Below the pieces are notes generated by a model. That model was not told where the DNA came from. It searched no databases and worked only from the letters and a program-made list of their open reading frames with translations. 44,129 bases of DNA from Candidatus Nomurabacteria bacterium (GTDB lineage Bacteria > Patescibacteriota > Saccharimonadia > Saccharimonadales > CAIOMD01). Position 1 is the first letter of the stretch. The number at the start of each line of letters is the position of its first letter. Shown here one piece after another: positions 9,816-23,697 of the stretch. Both the position numbers and the translations under genes were made by a program. The stretch is taken from positions 197,409 to 241,537 of the forward strand of contig JACKGO010000001.1 of NCBI GenBank assembly GCA_020631975.1. Direction: 5' to 3'.

Positions 9816-10262
9816 ATGGTTTCTGTCAGTCCACTGACAAATGCCGTCAGCGACAACATCGACAAGACAATCCAAGACTTGGAGGCTGGAACTTCGCCTG
9901 CTCTCGCAATTCAAGGATTGCTAATGCGAGATGTGCAAGCAATGTTCCACGGAGGGCCAGAACAAGGCCTTCATTTCGTGGATGCGGCCAATGCATGGTT
10001 CGGCGACCCGAAAAGCTCGGTCGCAACGACGTACGAAGATATGCACGCCGCATACTTCGACGGCTGGATGCTCATTGCCGAAGCAGTTGGTCGCCGTTTC
10101 ATCGACGAGCACAAGGCAGAGGCGGTGACGTTTTCACAGACTGCACTTGCCGAAAACGTCGTCATGCAAGTAATCAACAAGGTGCTGGAGCTGGAAGATG
10201 CCGTAATTTACGGCGCTGAAGTAATCTCAGCATACTTCATTGCGGTCACCGAGCCTGCCTAG
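9816..10262 (+). CDS. Hypothetical protein (148 aa) with atypically G+C-rich composition; probable horizontally acquired gene
   Basis: Strong SD (tagGGAGGtaaaATG). Codons are dominated by G/C-ending forms (GAC, ATC, AAG, GGC, TTC, GCC), unlike neighbouring genes. Five overlapping spurious ORFs in other frames reflect stop-poor G+C-rich DNA. Followed by its own terminators. Confidence 0.65.
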   Translation: MVSVSPLTNAVSDNIDKTIQDLEAGTSPALAIQGLLMRDVQAMFHGGPEQGLHFVDAANAWFGDPKSSVATTYEDMHAAYFDGWMLIAEAVGRRFIDEHKAEAVTFSQTALAENVVMQVINKVLELEDAVIYGAEVISAYFIAVTEPA

Positions 10263-10268
10263 GGTCAA

Positions 10269-10339
10269 GGGTGGGGCGCGTTAGGACTTTACCGTCCTGA
10301 CCGCCCCACCCCAACCACCATTTGTCTGGTGGTTTTTTT
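10269..10339 (+). terminator. Tandem terminator structures after the cassette gene
   Basis: GGGTGGGGCG (10269-10278) pairs with CGCCCCACCC (10302-10311) and encloses AGGAC/GTCCT. Then CCACCA (10315-10320) pairs with TGGTGG (10327-10332), followed by T7 (10333-10339). Confidence 0.65.
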
Positions 10340-10800
10340 AATACTAAAAATCTACAACAATACAGTCTTCGCATCCGTAGCATATACCATTTATACTATA
10401 AGTAGCTATGTGAGTACTTTGGCAAAAACTGCTAATTTAATTTACAAGCTGCATGACAAGATGTTTGCACACTCACTGATAGCCAATTGGCTGTTAAGCG
10501 TCCCTACAAACACCATATTCATTTGTTGCAATGGTTAGCGCTAGCGAGCTACGAACGGTACGCAAGCGTAATGATCATCAACATTTAGATAGTAACCCTA
10601 TAACAGCTACCATGTTTTGATACGCACCTTGGTTGCTAAAATGCGAAACTTTCGTTCTATACATACAGATATATTTCACTCTACTATCGCATTTTTAACA
10701 AACCAATCTATCACCTCAAAATTACGGTATTGTTATAAGGTTACTATCGCCTCCAATCCCGTTCGGCTTTACAAAACTTTAAAGTCTGGAGACAAAGAAT

Positions 10801-11055
10801 ATGGCTAAAACTATATTAAACCAAAAAGTCGATGTAACGGCTTTGTACTTTACGAACAAAAATGGGCAACTCAAGAGCTTTCCTAAGCGTATTGAGTACG
10901 ACGGTGGACATCACCAGTTTGTAGAATCTGGCTTGCAAATGCTCGTGCAAACAACAAGTGGTGTAATCCGAATTTTTGAAATGACTGATGGTCATAACAA
11001 CTTTCACCTCCGCCAAAACCCACAAAAAGACTGGACGCTCGTAGCTACCTACTAG
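10801..11055 (+). CDS. Small hypothetical protein (84 aa); paralogue of the 88-aa protein at 15742-16008
   Basis: GGAGA SD 8 nt upstream and a strong terminator downstream. Eyeball alignment with the 15742-16008 product shows a colinear block: P..I, then 33 residues ending IFE..D, then WTL. Confidence 0.6.
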   Translation: MAKTILNQKVDVTALYFTNKNGQLKSFPKRIEYDGGHHQFVESGLQMLVQTTSGVIRIFEMTDGHNNFHLRQNPQKDWTLVATY

Positions 11056-11076
11056 CTGCAAGCTCTTGTATAAAAT

Positions 11077-11108
11077 CGTCGCATATTTATGCGGCGTTTT
11101 TTATTTTG
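11077..11108 (+). terminator. Intrinsic terminator
   Basis: CGTCGCAT-ATTT-ATGCGGCG (8-bp stem, 4-nt loop) followed by TTTTTTATTTT. Confidence 0.75.
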
Positions 11109-17925: not shown

Positions 17926-18807
17926 ATGGAAACTGAAAGAAATTATTTTCGAGTAAATTTACTGCCCGAAGATGTCACTTCTTTAAATAGTCTCATAAAA
18001 ATGGTCTGCACAGCAAAAAAACATCCTTACAAATACAGGCATATAAAAATTGATGTCCCGGGTAATTTTGGAATGGTTGATACAAGTCAGATTACAATGT
18101 ACGGTAGCGGTTATAGTAGTAGAGATATTACATTATTAGATGCAGGGAAAGATGATGACTCGGCAGACAGTGGCTTGATGAGCTGTATGCTAGAATCTCA
18201 TAGAAAAAGCGGTCATGACGCTATTATCGATTACGACTGGAAAAATAAAGAGGCAAAATTAATTCCTGAGTCCGAGCCTTGGCATTACGGCATGGGTGAA
18301 TGTCTTGTCGAGAGATATTTTGATAGGCGCTATCATGATGCTGTTAAATATATGAATGACTCTACGGCGAATCAGATTGAAGATCTTGTTGGTGAACAAG
18401 ACGAGAAATTATCTCCTTTTGATATAATTACAAGACTAATCCAGCACGATAACGCAGCTGTTACTGTAGAACAGTTTTTTAGCGCAGATTATACTGGTGA
18501 GCGTTTGAGCCATCACGAACCAAAAACGCATAATCAGGCTCAACTTCGTTTAATTGAATATCTTAAAGGCACAAAAGCCCTAAGCACAAACTTTAAATTG
18601 GGTATATTTACTTTATTAGCTGTGGCTGACAATGAAGACGCAGTTGATCTTGCGTATGTTTTATCTGCTAATTATGATAGCCAGCACGATGAAGTGCATG
18701 ACTTGACTTTCGAGGCTAGTATTCAAGCGCCTCTAGCAATAACCAGAATCCCAAGAATTAGCCCTTTCTGGGAATTTGGTGATGCAATTGCAAAAATTGG
18801 CTATTAA
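17926..18807 (+). CDS. Hypothetical protein (293 aa)
   Basis: TGaTATAGT (17910-17918) lies 7 nt before the ATG. Acidic soluble protein, no family recognised. Confidence 0.55.
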   Translation: METERNYFRVNLLPEDVTSLNSLIKMVCTAKKHPYKYRHIKIDVPGNFGMVDTSQITMYGSGYSSRDITLLDAGKDDDSADSGLMSCMLESHRKSGHDAIIDYDWKNKEAKLIPESEPWHYGMGECLVERYFDRRYHDAVKYMNDSTANQIEDLVGEQDEKLSPFDIITRLIQHDNAAVTVEQFFSADYTGERLSHHEPKTHNQAQLRLIEYLKGTKALSTNFKLGIFTLLAVADNEDAVDLAYVLSANYDSQHDEVHDLTFEASIQAPLAITRIPRISPFWEFGDAIAKIGY

Positions 18808-18812
18808 ATTCA

Positions 18813-20702
18813 TTACATAAGTATGGCTTTTATACGGCGAACACCGGCAGAACTTGCTTGTTCTTTGGTGATTTTAAACACTTTACCATCATCTGCTAAT
18901 TTGCCGGTATGCGTCACGTGTGGGCCACCGCAAATTTCGCGTGAGTAATTATCGCCATCTGGGTCACCAACAGTATAGACCTTTACCGTTTTGCCGTATT
19001 TATCACCAAATGCACCCATCACACCATTCGCAAGTGCTTCTTTGGTTGATTCTTCGCGCCATGACATTGGCCAATCTTTTTTGATTTGTTCGTTCACGAT
19101 TGCTTCTATTTGTGTAATTTGTTCTGGAGTTACTTTTTGATCGTGGCTAAAGTCAAAACGTAAACGTTCGGCAGTGATATTGCTACCACGTTGCACTACG
19201 TGGTCACCCAACACAATACGCAAAGCCTTATACATGAGGTGTGTGGCTGTGTGGTATTTTGTTGTAATTTCTGAGTGGTCAGCCAAACCACCTTTAAAGA
19301 CACCTTTCGCAGCAGTTTGGCTACGAGCTTTTTGTTCTGCCATAAATCTATCAAATTCTTCTGTGGCATCAAGCGCAACCGCGACATCTTGCTTAAAAGC
19401 TTCTTCTTTGGTGAGTTCTACCGGAAAGCCATATGTGTCGTATAGCTTGAATATAATCGCACCTGTTAATAAGCCACCGCTCGTTAGTTTGCCGAATTCT
19501 CTTACCCCACTGCGGAGCGTTTGGCGGAATACCTTTTCTTCACGTGCTAACACTGCAATTATTTGTTCGCGATTTTGGGCGACTTCTGGGTAATCGTCGT
19601 GGTATAAATCGGCAATGGTTGGTACAACTTGCTCTAAAAAGTTTTGCTCTATGCCAAGTTCGAAGGCGTAGCGGATGGCTCTACGCAAAAAACGGCGTAT
19701 CACGTAGCCTTGAGTTTTATTGCTTGGCACTACCCCGTCTACTGCTAAAAAGGTTGCCGCACGTAAGTGATCAGCAATCACGCGCATGGCGGTACTGTGT
19801 TGTTCGTACTTTTTGCCACTTAGCTGTTCTAGCTTTTGTATAATTGGCCACAGCAAACTTATTTTAAACATATCTCCGCTGCCTTCAGAAGCAGCAGCCA
19901 CTCGCTCTAAACCACCACCAAAATCTACGTTAGCTTTTGGTAGTTCGCTAAAACTGCCATCGTCATTTTTGATGTACTGCATAAATACAGAGTTACCAAT
20001 TTCCATAAACCTACCACAATCGCAATTAGGATGGCAGTGCTCACCATACGACGTGTCATGTTGTATGTGGCTAAATTCATAAAATACTTCGCTGTCTGGG
20101 CCCCCCGGCTCACCGGCAGGCATGTTTGCAGGTACACCAGCCCGGCTCCACCAGTTCTTTTTTGCATCATAGTAAAAGATTCTTTCATTTTGTTTTATGC
20201 CGCGCTTGTAACCGTCTTCTTCAGAACCAATATCTGCAATATTTGCCGTAATATCTTTACTTTTAAATAGTTCTACCCACAGCTCGGCCGATTCTGAATC
20301 TTTTGGAACACCTGCTGCGCTGTCGCCTATAAACGCTGTAACGTACAGTTTATTTGGGTCTAGGCCAACAATATCTACTAAAAATGCAAAATACCAGGTG
20401 AGTTGGTCTTGCTTAAAGTAATCACCAAAGCTCCAGTTGCCGAGCATTTCAAAAAATGTAGTGTGGCGGTTATCGCCGACTTCTTCTATGTCTTCTGATC
20501 TAAAACATGGTTGGCTATCGACGACTCTGGTACCACTAGGATGTTGCTCGCCAAGTAAGTATGGTAGTAATGGCTGCATCCCACTCCCTGTAAACAGAGT
20601 GGTTGGGTCATTTTGTGGTACTAAACTTGCCCGTGGAATTATGGTGTGTCCATTTTGCTTGGCATACTCTAAGTAGGCTTTTCTAATGTGTTGTGCTGTC
20701 AT
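18813..20702 (-). CDS. alaS: Alanine--tRNA ligase, short form lacking the C-Ala domain
   Basis: N-terminal AlaRS motifs (LVPQNDPTLLFTGSGMQP, FEMLGNWSFGDYFK). Editing-domain Zn site HTATHLMYKAL...CGGPHV. Ends at 629 aa, shortly after the editing domain. Confidence 0.92.
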   Translation of the reverse strand: MTAQHIRKAYLEYAKQNGHTIIPRASLVPQNDPTTLFTGSGMQPLLPYLLGEQHPSGTRVVDSQPCFRSEDIEEVGDNRHTTFFEMLGNWSFGDYFKQDQLTWYFAFLVDIVGLDPNKLYVTAFIGDSAAGVPKDSESAELWVELFKSKDITANIADIGSEEDGYKRGIKQNERIFYYDAKKNWWSRAGVPANMPAGEPGGPDSEVFYEFSHIQHDTSYGEHCHPNCDCGRFMEIGNSVFMQYIKNDDGSFSELPKANVDFGGGLERVAAASEGSGDMFKISLLWPIIQKLEQLSGKKYEQHSTAMRVIADHLRAATFLAVDGVVPSNKTQGYVIRRFLRRAIRYAFELGIEQNFLEQVVPTIADLYHDDYPEVAQNREQIIAVLAREEKVFRQTLRSGVREFGKLTSGGLLTGAIIFKLYDTYGFPVELTKEEAFKQDVAVALDATEEFDRFMAEQKARSQTAAKGVFKGGLADHSEITTKYHTATHLMYKALRIVLGDHVVQRGSNITAERLRFDFSHDQKVTPEQITQIEAIVNEQIKKDWPMSWREESTKEALANGVMGAFGDKYGKTVKVYTVGDPDGDNYSREICGGPHVTHTGKLADDGKVFKITKEQASSAGVRRIKAILM

Positions 20703-20846
20703 ATTACCTATTATTTTACAGAGGTTCTAAGGCATATACAAGCCGTTGTTAAAAGCCATATTTGCAGACGTAGAGTTAGTATTTAACTGTAACTATTCTA
20801 TTAAAGCGATAAAATATAACGTTCGCAGGTTTAGTTTAATAATATG

Positions 20847-21286
20847 AAAAACCCCGCTGGTAGGGATTGGTCCTTATGAAAGGACACGTTCCTGCTAGCG
20901 GGGTGTTGCACTCTGGAACCACAGAGGCATGGGCTTATTTAGTGTCTTAAGCTTGACGTAAGTGAGTGTGGGGAGGGATGAATTTGACCTTTTAGGTCGT
21001 GAGCTTTAGGCATTAGCTCATTCATCCCTCCCTTTTGTGAGCGGGCGCCTAACCCCGGTCTCAGTACGCACCTTTTTATGGGTGCTTGTAGGGTGAAGTC
21101 GTTGTTACTTAATTGACGCCAGCCGCGTCACTTCACCCTTGCTGGTCTACCCCTCGCTATTACGAGGGGTTACTTTAGGAGAACCGTTTGTACACTACAC
21201 GTTCGTAGTGGGCGTCCAGCAGCGCCTTAGTATCCCCTGCTGGTTGTACTACTTATTTTACCTTTAAGGCTGCTGCCTCTTGGGTA
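20847..21286 (-). ncRNA. Unclassified, highly structured G+C-rich RNA locus (strand provisional; could also be an alaS leader)
   Basis: No ORF. At least ten perfect helices of 5-13 bp (coordinates in the findings). A near-consensus promoter and a hairpin plus U5 are both on the - strand. No RNase P, tmRNA, SRP or T-box hallmark strings found by eye. Confidence 0.45.
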
Positions 21287-21292
21287 TTTATA

Positions 21293-21321
21293 ATAATAGC
21301 ACAAAATTAGTATAAAGTCAA
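21293..21321 (-). promoter_or_regulatory. Near-consensus sigma-70 promoter driving the structured RNA locus
   Basis: On the - strand: TTGACT (21321-21316), 17-nt spacer, TGc (21301-21299), TATTAT (21298-21293). Confidence 0.55.
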
Positions 21322-21343
21322 CAAATATGTACGGGGTATGCTG

Positions 21344-21841
21344 CTAGGTAACGTGGGGTTGGTTTTGCTTTGGGAGGTAGAATGTTACTACATACCACAG
21401 TAGCGCACCAATAAGCAGGTACGCAAATGTAGACGCTACAGCTGGGTCGCTATGTTTGGTATCTACTGCAGCGGCGTAATCTACAGCAGTAAATGGTTTT
21501 TCTGCTGGTATTTGATCTGTAGGTAAGCCTGTAGCTTTACTCGCAACCTGATGTTCGTATGGCAATTTAACAGAAACATTAATGGGTAGCGAGTAAATGC
21601 TTGTATCCACGCCAAATGTCATATGTTCTGTGGTGGTGGCAAGGCTAAAATAACCCTGTTGCTGGCTAATAACGGGGCGTGGTTTGATAGGCCCGTCATG
21701 TGTGGGTTGTGTGAATGCCCCTCCCGATGCGTGTACAGAGCTGCTGATAGTAATGAGCATAAAAATTAACAGACCAATAAATACACTAATAATTCCAATC
21801 TTGGTGATTTGTACGTTCTTATTGGTATATAACGATGTCAT
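21344..21841 (-). CDS. Membrane-anchored hypothetical protein (165 aa)
   Basis: N-terminal TM/signal anchor, ~95-aa external domain and a C-terminal TM helix (FAYLLIGALLWYVVTFYL). Confidence 0.55.
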   Translation of the reverse strand: MTSLYTNKNVQITKIGIISVFIGLLIFMLITISSSVHASGGAFTQPTHDGPIKPRPVISQQQGYFSLATTTEHMTFGVDTSIYSLPINVSVKLPYEHQVASKATGLPTDQIPAEKPFTAVDYAAAVDTKHSDPAVASTFAYLLIGALLWYVVTFYLPKQNQPHVT

Positions 21842-21969
21842 GATACGTTAGCCACTATGTGAATTTTCGTTTAATTACTTGATAGTTGTTATTATGCGCT
21901 CTTTAGCTTATTCGTCAATATTTACTGATACAGATGAAATAGCTTGGTAATTGGCGTACAATAAAGATA

Positions 21970-23697
21970 ATGTTCGAAAAACTAACAGTCACCCTACCAA
22001 TACATGCTGTATTACAAACATATAAACGTGCGTATATACGGCGTGATGTAATTGCTGGAGCAACAGTAGCAGCAGTGGCCGTGCCACAAGCCATGGCGTA
22101 TGCACAGTTAGCTGGTGTTAATTTAACAGCTGGTTTATACGCAGCCATGGTAGCAATGGTGGTGTATGCAATTATGAGTTCATCGCGCTACGTAATTATG
22201 GGTCCAGATGCGGCCATGGCAGCACTCGCTGGGGCAGCCGTTATACCACTTTCTGGTGGCGATGCTAACAGAGCTGTCGCGCTGGTTGCAATATTGTCGT
22301 TCTTTATTGGCTTAGTAAGCATTATTAGTGTGATTGCACGCATTGGTTTTGTGGCTGAGTTTTTGTCACGGCCAATACTATTAGGTTACATGGCAGGTCT
22401 GGCACTTGTAGTTATTGCCACGCAGTTACCAAAAGTATTTGGCATACCAGCACCGGTAAATACCAACTTTTTAGGTTCGATTGTGTATTTGTTTACGAAT
22501 ATCTCACAAACGCACATCCTGACACTTGCACTCGGCGGGGTTACCTTGGCGATAGCTCTATTACTTATGAAAGGCTTTAAGCGCCTACCTGTCAGCTTGC
22601 TGATACTGATTATTGGTACTTTTTGTTCATGGGCATTTGATTTTGCGAGCAATGGCGTTGCTATCGTTGGTAGTATTCCTATTGGCTTACCTGTACCCGA
22701 CCTGCCGTCTATTGAGTTATATGATTTGCAAAACCTAATTATACCAGCAATGGCGATGATGTTGATTGCCTACGCCAATACTATTGCAACCGCGCGGTCG
22801 TTTGCATCTAGGAAAAAAGAAACAGTGAGTTCTGACCAAGAACTACTCGGGCTTGGGCTTTCTAATGCAGCGTCTGGCATTTACGGTGGTATACCAGTGT
22901 CTGCAAGTGGTGTACGCACAGCAGTAAACTATACAAGCCGTGCTAAAACGCAAGTTTCGCAACTGTTTGGTGCGCTATTTATTGGTGTGGTACTTGCGGT
23001 GTTATCACCAATGTTACAGTATTTGCCTATAACAATGCTGGCGGTCATTATAATTTTGGCGGTATTGCCTTTGTTTAACGTAAAAGAGTTACGTTCTATT
23101 TGGCATGCATGGCGTAGTGAAGCAGTAGTCGCTGTAGTAACAATGCTTGGAGTTGCCACGTTAGGTATTTACCAAGGCTTACTATTGGCAGTGATGCTTG
23201 CAATACTTAATACATTGCGCAAAAGTGCCTTCCCTAACGATGCAATTCTTGGTGTTGCAGATGACGGATCGGTCCGCGATATGCACCGCCCACCCAAGAC
23301 ACATGAAGTGCCAGGGCTTAAAATGTATCGTTTTGATGCACCTCTATATTTTGGCAATGCCACGTATTTTCGGCACCGGGTACTGCAAATTGTAGATGAA
23401 TCTAAAGAGCCTATTCACTGGTTTTTATGGGATGCAGAAACAATAACTGCTATAGATTCTACGTCTGGGCAAATGCTTCTAGGGCTCATAGACGAGCTAA
23501 AATCACGTAAAGTAACCTTTGCGGTTGCGAGGATGAAAGGGTCTATAAGAACAATTGTGCATCGTTCGCACCGCCTAAGTAGCACGCTACAGCATTCACC
23601 ACACTATACATCTATTGGCAACGCTATAGAGGCATACCGGCAAGAATACAATGTGCCACGTGCGTACGATGTAAAATCAGAAGATAAATCAACCTGA
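21970..23697 (+). CDS. SulP-family anion transporter with C-terminal STAS domain
   Basis: RRDVIAGATVAAVAVPQAMAYAQLAG signature, ~11 TM helices, and a STAS-like C-terminus (LKMYRFDAPLYFGNATYF...LWDAETITAIDSTS). Confidence 0.9.
   Translation: MFEKLTVTLPIHAVLQTYKRAYIRRDVIAGATVAAVAVPQAMAYAQLAGVNLTAGLYAAMVAMVVYAIMSSSRYVIMGPDAAMAALAGAAVIPLSGGDANRAVALVAILSFFIGLVSIISVIARIGFVAEFLSRPILLGYMAGLALVVIATQLPKVFGIPAPVNTNFLGSIVYLFTNISQTHILTLALGGVTLAIALLLMKGFKRLPVSLLILIIGTFCSWAFDFASNGVAIVGSIPIGLPVPDLPSIELYDLQNLIIPAMAMMLIAYANTIATARSFASRKKETVSSDQELLGLGLSNAASGIYGGIPVSASGVRTAVNYTSRAKTQVSQLFGALFIGVVLAVLSPMLQYLPITMLAVIIILAVLPLFNVKELRSIWHAWRSEAVVAVVTMLGVATLGIYQGLLLAVMLAILNTLRKSAFPNDAILGVADDGSVRDMHRPPKTHEVPGLKMYRFDAPLYFGNATYFRHRVLQIVDESKEPIHWFLWDAETITAIDSTSGQMLLGLIDELKSRKVTFAVARMKGSIRTIVHRSHRLSSTLQHSPHYTSIGNAIEAYRQEYNVPRAYDVKSEDKST

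Follow-up and report, generated by a model that had tools for sequence, protein, structure and literature searches.

Densely folding non-coding DNA between bacterial genes is known in several forms. Lineage-specific small RNA (sRNA) and other non-coding RNA (ncRNA) genes have promoters and terminators of their own, and miniature inverted-repeat transposable elements (MITEs) usually fold as a single long end-to-end stem. Large ornate ncRNAs form a third group, some members of which also travel with mobile or accessory DNA. The locus considered here lies in a 44,129-nt stretch of contig JACKGO010000001.1 (the window, whose positions are used throughout) from Candidatus Nomurabacteria assembly GCA_020631975.1, a member of the Saccharimonadales (TM7, Patescibacteria), where its AlaS protein also places it. 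It occupies the 641-nt gap (20703–21343) between alaS, encoding alanyl-tRNA synthetase, and an open reading frame (ORF) of 165 codons, ORF165. The episymbiont genomes of Saccharibacteria are strongly reduced, so 0.6 kb of non-coding DNA is conspicuous. An earlier note on this DNA had proposed an unclassified structured RNA at 20847–21286, with a divergent housekeeping RNA or an attenuating leader of alaS as other options. The reading favored here, with a probability of roughly 0.45, is an accessory non-coding cassette bounded by inverted repeats, in which a minus-strand RNA of ~440 nt, dense in hairpins, has a promoter and a terminator of its own. The cassette belongs to a hypervariable island of a single Saccharimonadales species and is possibly mobile. 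Confidence in this and the other readings is subjective, and the figures behind them need not sum to one.

The accessory nature of the element is seen in strain variation. The same DNA also occurs in the metagenome-assembled genome GCA_020428475.1 and in many metagenome assemblies, and the same-species haplotypes comprise three full ones (the window type, L098 and L101), two partial ones (L104 and L097) and one allele that does not carry the element (L102). In L102, the DNA from ORF165 to the 54 nt that precede alaS consists of 45 unrelated nucleotides in place of 584 (window 20757–21340). This strain has an intact alaS whose product is exactly the AlaS of element-bearing L101 (P0136), and its ORF165 is 99% identical to that of the window. 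Since L102 lacks the element despite sharing its AlaS with L101, the element is dispensable and was recently gained or lost. Presence and absence between genomes as close as these two is the pattern by which MITE-type elements are recognized.

The ends of the variable unit are marked by a 13-bp inverted repeat, CATATTTGNNGAC, which has exactly two copies in the window (0.04 expected), in inverted orientation at the two ends. The left copy (CATATTTGTTGAC; 21317–21329, minus strand) overlaps the –35 hexamer of the promoter described below and lies 11 nt inside the aligned edge of the indel, and the right copy (CATATTTGCAGAC; 20757–20769, plus strand) falls exactly at the indel boundary. In ~1 Mb of relatives’ loci, CATATTTGNNGAC was not found. 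Measured from repeat to repeat, the strain-variable non-coding element is ~573 bp long (20757–21329), and the indel against L102 spans 20757–21340 as aligned. The extent given by the earlier note, 20847–21286, thus stands for the hairpin-dense stretch (the core) and falls short of the whole unit, which is larger. An AT-rich tail (20770–20846) between the core and the right repeat belongs to the indel as well and is 100% identical in all haplotypes.

The core is framed by transcription signals on the minus strand. A sigma-70-type promoter (21293–21321) consists of TTGACT, a 17-nt spacer and TGcTATTAT, matching the consensus at 10 of 12 positions with a TG extension. Sites of this quality are rare: 19 scoring at least 10/12 were counted in 88 kb of sequence, three of them with a TG extension, this one included, and the other high-scoring sites lie mostly just upstream of genes. 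At the far end, a long terminal hairpin (20852–20903) is followed by UUUUU (20851–20847), together a presumed intrinsic terminator (20847–20903, minus strand). Both signals had been pointed out in the earlier note, and both are present where it placed them (21321–21293 and 20903–20847). The two promoter hexamers and the TG are identical, and the terminator stem and U5 are kept, in every haplotype that covers them; the terminal hairpin as a whole is identical across haplotypes but for one internal-loop base. A promoter and a terminator around a non-coding, stably folding region are the marks of a stand-alone bacterial ncRNA gene. From the sequence, we infer transcription of the segment, with the minus strand as the RNA strand, and selection on the RNA product rather than on the DNA.

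Coding potential in the gap is slight. It contains no ORF of at least 60 aa (the longest has 42 aa), as had been stated before, and a Pfam scan of 8 of the 11 small ORFs of at least 20 aa, namely those within the element, gave no match for any of the eight. In a 28-aa ORF within helix P7 (described below), a Shine–Dalgarno-like GGGAGGG immediately abuts the AUG and is buried in a 13-bp stem. The core is also richer in G+C (0.49–0.54) than its immediate AT-rich flanks (0.27–0.37), in line with the earlier description, and the window overall has ~0.42.

The folding of this DNA is exceptional within the window. For a 456-nt block, the minus strand reaches –170 kcal/mol (z = –7.7) and the plus strand –201 kcal/mol (z = –9.65), and on either strand none of 100 shuffles folds as well. 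A window-wide scan (200-nt windows on both strands, 880 in all, each against 30 dinucleotide shuffles) ranked the plus strand of 20801–21000 first of the 880 (z = –9.6), and the top 25 include seven others that overlap the element. The inverted repeats that the earlier note had listed are all present: the pair 20971–20983/21020–21032 is complementary at 13 of 13 positions, and the helix given as 21091–21099/21130–21138 is complementary at 10 of 10 over 21090–21099/21130–21139. Its remark that the first hairpin has GU pairs only when read on the plus strand is likewise correct.

The predicted structured transcript (~440 nt; 20847–21286, minus strand), on which the top-ranked window of the scan falls, comprises helices P1 to P8 and the terminator hairpin. 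From its 5' end, P1 (21259–21286) has an outer helix (21282–21286/21259–21263) and an inner hairpin (21275–21279/21266–21270), and its hairpin is retained with altered sequence in the partial haplotype L097. P2 (21216–21243) pairs CCAGCAG with CUGCUGG in 7 bp around a 14-nt loop and is unchanged in the three full haplotypes, and P3 (21193–21210) pairs CACUAC with GUAGUG in 6 bp. P4 (21150–21169) is an 8-bp hairpin in which one C-G pair has changed to U.G with pairing kept. P5 (21090–21139) is a 10-bp helix around a hairpin, P5a (21115–21119/21125–21129), and an A-rich internal strand of 15 nt; in two places a one-sided change has turned U-A into U.G or A-U into G.U, and both pairs are kept. 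P6 (21068–21085) is a GCACC/GGUGC hairpin whose A-rich loop differs in length among haplotypes. P7 (20971–21032) is a three-way junction, in which a 13-bp stem surrounds hairpins 21001–21005/21015–21019 and 20986–20990/20994–20998. The P7 stem is unchanged in four haplotypes; the loop of the 20986–20998 hairpin is hypervariable (AAAA to CCGU). P8 (20907–20929) is a hairpin with loop indels among haplotypes, and the terminator hairpin follows. Direct repeats within the element number four, each of two copies only and 9–15 nt long, and form no array. The minus strand also carries two similar 15-mers, AAUAAGCCCAUGCCU and AAUGAGCUAAUGCCU, at 20925–20939 and 21008–21022, and AAGG occurs seven times in the predicted RNA, mostly where an A-rich loop passes into a stem.

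Variation among strains is unevenly spread over this predicted structure. Stem positions vary less than unpaired ones (8 of 162 against 30 of 278 variable; Fisher p = 0.036), and the variation is concentrated in loops and linkers, where the loops have undergone indels and replacements of several bases. In the consensus structure (13 helices, 99 pairs), 99.1% of cells are paired across five haplotypes; because this structure was derived on the minus strand, such pair counts are biased towards that strand. Five consensus pairs vary, and in each of them a one-sided change leaves a G.U pair when read on the minus strand. On that strand, A outnumbers U at the unpaired positions by 107 to 56, an A-richness typical of structured RNAs. 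The contrast between stems and loops, the pairs kept as G.U, the loop indels and the A-rich unpaired positions may be read as signs of selection on an RNA. Four independent assemblies (L096, L097, L100 and L104) break inside the element, which fits strain heterogeneity. In sample ERR8482638 the middle of the element (roughly P1–P6 and the following linker) is unassembled, and the data suggest that haplotypes of this stretch coexist in that sample.

The cassette could then work as follows. A ~573-bp segment with 13-bp inverted repeats would sit between ORF165 and the region immediately upstream of alaS, in an insertion hotspot between sulP and alaS. The sigma-70 promoter overlapping the left repeat would drive a minus-strand RNA of ~440 nt that folds as a series of hairpins, largely independent of one another and joined by A-rich linkers, with the three-way junction among them. 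This RNA would end at the long hairpin and U5, and the same hairpin would also block read-through from ORF165 into alaS. As a best guess, this RNA would be dispensable, would act in trans or bind a protein, and would be carried on a mobile or formerly mobile non-autonomous element.

Several observations weigh against this reading. With respect to mobility, no target-site duplication is visible: no direct repeat flanks the inverted repeats, and L102 has its 45-nt filler rather than a clean empty site. No second copy of the element exists in the 44-kb window or in the relatives’ loci. Domain scans of the window ORFs of at least 100 aa found no transposase, integrase, reverse transcriptase, recombinase, Cas, TnpB or Nop-domain protein, and a window free of transposases likewise weighs on mobility. 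With respect to the RNA, strain comparison over 6.5 kb finds the highest divergence in the core, at 5–8% plus indels; the background is 0–1%, with recombination patches of 4–5%. Compensatory double changes number zero among variants that are all at strain level, 86 of the 99 pairs never vary, and a shuffle control gave no covariation signal. The stems are almost purely Watson–Crick, no GNRA or UNCG tetraloop is present, and such stems are also compatible with DNA palindromes. As to the strand, the plus strand folds better, by the z-scores given above and with 18 G.U pairs where the minus strand has 3. Four positions of the terminal hairpin depart from Watson–Crick pairing, as G.U when read on the plus strand and as A.C when read on the minus strand. 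A wobble tally over all helices is about even (six positions favor minus, seven plus) and leaves the strand ambiguous. Finally, none of the searches described below found a homologue outside the species. The earlier note had held that a lack of homologues or of covariation would speak against its proposal, and this applies in part: homologues were found within the species only, and the helices show no compensatory change.

The alternative that survives best, though it is unlikely, is an inert, MITE-like relic of a non-autonomous mobile element, in which the hairpins are DNA palindromes, the promoter and terminator are incidental or tolerated and any RNA is functionless. It agrees with the 13-bp terminal inverted repeats at the indel boundary, with presence and absence between near-identical strains, with the hotspot location, with a divergence that is the highest in the locus, and with nearly all-Watson–Crick stems that have no compensatory covariation. 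The 45-nt filler of L102 also holds a degenerate copy of the left repeat (17 of 23 positions identical), so L102 may be a deletion footprint rather than a virgin site. A relic of this kind would, however, share the difficulties over mobility: no target-site duplication is visible, the element is single-copy in 44 kb and has no copy in ~0.83 Mb of relatives’ DNA, and the window has no transposase. Its interior also consists of about nine different local hairpins instead of one end-to-end stem. The stems, moreover, vary less than the loops, and the core lies exactly between a near-consensus promoter and a U-tailed hairpin that share one orientation.

A functional RNA on the plus strand, antisense to the direction of ORF165 and alaS, with a start near 20850 and an end near 21290, is quite doubtful. 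It would account for the lower free energy and stronger z-score of that strand and for its 18 G.U pairs against 3, and the first helix is continuous over 17 bp only there, with four G.U pairs (about 1 in 16 by a sign test). Strands rich in G+U, however, always gain wobble pairs. No plus-strand promoter of at least 9/12 lies upstream of 20850 and no U-tailed hairpin stands at the 3' side; moreover, U would outnumber A at unpaired positions by 107 to 56, and the five polymorphic stem pairs would turn into C.A mismatches. The minus-strand cassette can also be extended into a more speculative and rather improbable proposal. The element would be the first example of a class not seen before, in which a non-autonomous Saccharibacteria element bounded by inverted repeats has a large multi-hairpin RNA as its functional cargo. 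That RNA would perhaps be a guide or specificity RNA for mobilization in trans, or else a strain-specific regulator tied to the neighboring hypervariable surface protein, and its hypervariable loops would set specificity.

Known families and homologues were sought in several ways. The Rfam scan that the earlier note had proposed gave no match at the gathering score in the whole window, and at E ≤ 10 on 20650–21400 it returned only two miRNA-precursor matches and one HgcG match, all chance matches on the first hairpin. Even at E ≤ 10, this interval has no match to T-box (RF00230), RNase P (RNaseP_bact_a/b), transfer-messenger RNA (tmRNA), 6S or signal recognition particle (SRP) RNA, and ARAGORN found neither tRNA nor tmRNA in the window; the lack of RNase P, tmRNA, SRP and T-box hallmarks that had been judged by eye is thereby borne out. 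The covariance models of OLE, GOLLD, ROOL, HEARO and raiA gave no match. In nhmmer and blastn searches of 80 alaS loci from GTDB species and of the loci of the closest relatives, nothing matched the locus, and a distant-mode blastn search of phage and plasmid collections also found no match. Exact-pattern scans of viral contigs with four invariant 21–24-mers had 0 matches, and a metagenome scan with the 19-mer of the P7a hairpin had four, none with similarity beyond the word itself. A covariance model of P5–P7 (R1, 169 nt) matched only the element itself in 0.83 Mb, and no described structured RNA of this kind in Saccharibacteria was found in the literature. Non-coding, densely structured and outside every Rfam family, the element still has an unclassified RNA as its leading reading, as the earlier note proposed, and it may represent a new RNA class, as that note further suggested.

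The surroundings of alaS in relatives bear on the remaining alternatives. In 26 Saccharibacteria relatives (AlaS 52–66% identical), the gap upstream of alaS is mostly 10–140 nt, the three exceptions having no gap, 319 nt or 389 nt, and by nhmmer none of the 80 alaS loci fetched resembles the element. The three closest lineages (L091, L093 and L095; AlaS 79–85% identical) have neither ORF165 nor the element within 10 kb. In L091 and L095, sulP, encoding a sulfate permease, lies ~100 nt from alaS, and in L093 a VWA/SpaA pilin and sortase cluster lies in between. ORF165 and the element, present here and not in these three lineages, are thus an insertion into a sulP–alaS hotspot (20703–21969). Outside the element, a 54-nt alaS-proximal region (20703–20756, minus strand) lies downstream of the element’s terminator and is retained in L102. 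It contains TGTAAAAT (20713–20720), which recurs upstream of alaS in L093 and L095 and may be an extended –10 promoter.

That the element is an attenuating leader of alaS, its terminator controlling read-through into the gene, is accordingly very improbable. The element does lie on the alaS strand with its terminator 145 nt upstream of the gene, and alternative pairings are possible among CCAGCAG, CUGCUGG and CCAGCAA. A T-box-like or other cis-regulator is nevertheless rejected, because relatives with AlaS 45–85% identical have short alaS gaps that do not contain the element (none of the 80 fetched and none of the three closest lineages has it upstream of alaS) and because L102, of the same species, keeps an intact alaS without it. 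No T-box matches at E ≤ 10, and the conserved 54-nt region with TGTAAAAT sits downstream of the terminator. Least probable of all is a highly divergent RNase P RNA, tmRNA, 6S or SRP RNA, for which the size is in the right range and the neighboring chromosomal genes are ordinary housekeeping genes: an essential RNA would be expected in every strain, and this element is dispensable within its species, gives no Rfam signal at E ≤ 10 and nothing from ARAGORN, is not near alaS in close relatives, has no structural match in 0.83 Mb of their DNA, and diverges faster than its flanks, being the fastest-changing part of the 6.5 kb.

The gene directly upstream of the element, ORF165 (21344–21841, minus strand), encodes 165 aa with a signal peptide and a C-terminal transmembrane segment and has no Pfam or NCBIfam family. 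It is an orphan, for which the only homologues found are members of its own cluster at 90% identity. ORF165 has 90–100% identity among strains in which AlaS has 99.4–100%, and its alleles have a mosaic look; diversifying selection may be acting on it as a surface protein. No similarity links it to the element, and the idea of a diversity-generating retroelement was dropped on that ground. Further upstream, a 77-aa ORF (21915–22148, minus strand) is an artefact, read antisense to the start of sulP at its 5' end, since its tblastn matches in relatives land on the sulP start. Downstream of the element, alaS (18813–20702, minus strand) encodes a short, 629-aa form (Pfam tRNA-synt_2c and tRNA_SAD; NCBIfam PRK01584) with the catalytic and editing/SAD domains only, a length shared across the Patescibacteria matches. 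Its catalytic part (residues 1–466) is 57–60% identical to AlaS of Rhodococcus and Subtercola (loci L059, L067 and L078), an identity equal to that with many Patescibacteria AlaS proteins. Rhodococcus and Subtercola are Actinomycetota, the phylum that hosts cultivated Saccharibacteria. Immediately downstream of alaS, L101 (4882–5829) and L102 (3873–4400) have a 315-aa gene where the window has a 293-aa gene (17926–18807), so alaS is flanked by variable DNA on both sides. Elsewhere in the window, the only site of folding comparable to the element (10201–10400) is an ordinary strong bidirectional terminator (10263–10335; GGGTGGGGCGCG...CGCCCCACCC followed by T7). Next come ~465 nt of AT-rich non-coding DNA and then, at 10801–11096, an 84-aa ORF without a Pfam family and with its own terminator (11077–11096).

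If the RNA is real, it would join a very short list of structured RNA candidates without a housekeeping role in Saccharibacteria. Its setting is suggestive: the island around it recombines and is hypervariable, the gene beside it encodes a putative orphan surface protein, and its stems are conserved and its loops hypervariable. Such a pattern would be expected of an RNA in strain-specific interactions or element mobility. If the element is only a MITE relic, a false candidate for an alaS riboswitch or leader has been removed and the sulP–alaS insertion hotspot is documented in this lineage.

Compared with known systems, the element resembles T-boxes and other leaders of aminoacyl-tRNA synthetase genes in lying upstream of such a gene, on the same strand, with a terminator hairpin at its end. 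It differs from them in that it is not conserved with alaS, has no T-box motif, is dispensable in one strain and leaves a separate alaS-proximal region downstream of its terminator. A protein sponge of the CsrB/RsmZ type is rejected, GGA occurring in one loop only, that of P2 (GGGAUACUAAGGCG). Hairpin or repeat arrays with repeated units and an adjacent Nop-domain Tas gene, the TIGR-Tas systems, are known from Patescibacteria (PMC12045711). The host thus belongs to a phylum that has them; the element contains no repeated units, and no Nop-domain Tas gene is found among the window ORFs of at least 100 aa, so a TIGR array was also rejected. Guide RNAs of mobile elements (the bridge or seek RNAs of IS110/IS1111 and the omega-RNA of IS605) are likewise structured ncRNAs inside terminal or subterminal inverted repeats. 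Neither kind is favored here, as the window has no recombinase or TnpB, and complementarity to the element ends or target flanks, as a bridge or seek RNA would have it, is at chance level, with shared words of 7–8 nt. With the large ornate ncRNAs in Rfam (OLE, GOLLD, ROOL, HEARO/IscB omega-RNA and raiA), the element shares a length above 400 nt, multiple helices, multi-way junctions and an intergenic position. Unlike them, it matches no covariance model, is not conserved past one species, has no covariation and is not associated with a protein gene such as IscB or an HNH nuclease.

Two comparisons are closer. Like MITEs and other non-autonomous elements (Correia, BOX, ERIC and the Tn3-derived inverted-repeat miniature elements, TIMEs), the element has terminal inverted repeats at its presence/absence edges, is non-coding, intergenic and of comparable size, and carries promoter and terminator signals, and its RNA, like theirs, would be highly structured. 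In contrast to them, it is seen as a single copy, with no visible target-site duplication and no known parent insertion sequence or transposase, and its interior is a row of different local hairpins, not a single fold-back stem. With lineage-specific bacterial sRNA and ncRNA genes it shares an intergenic, non-coding position, its own sigma-70-type promoter, a U-tailed terminal hairpin, strong folding, a place in the accessory genome and quick evolution. It is much longer (~440 nt) than typical sRNAs, has more helices and is bounded by inverted repeats like an inserted element. No known RNA family includes the element; its kind, whether that of an orphan ncRNA gene or of a non-autonomous insertion element, is familiar.

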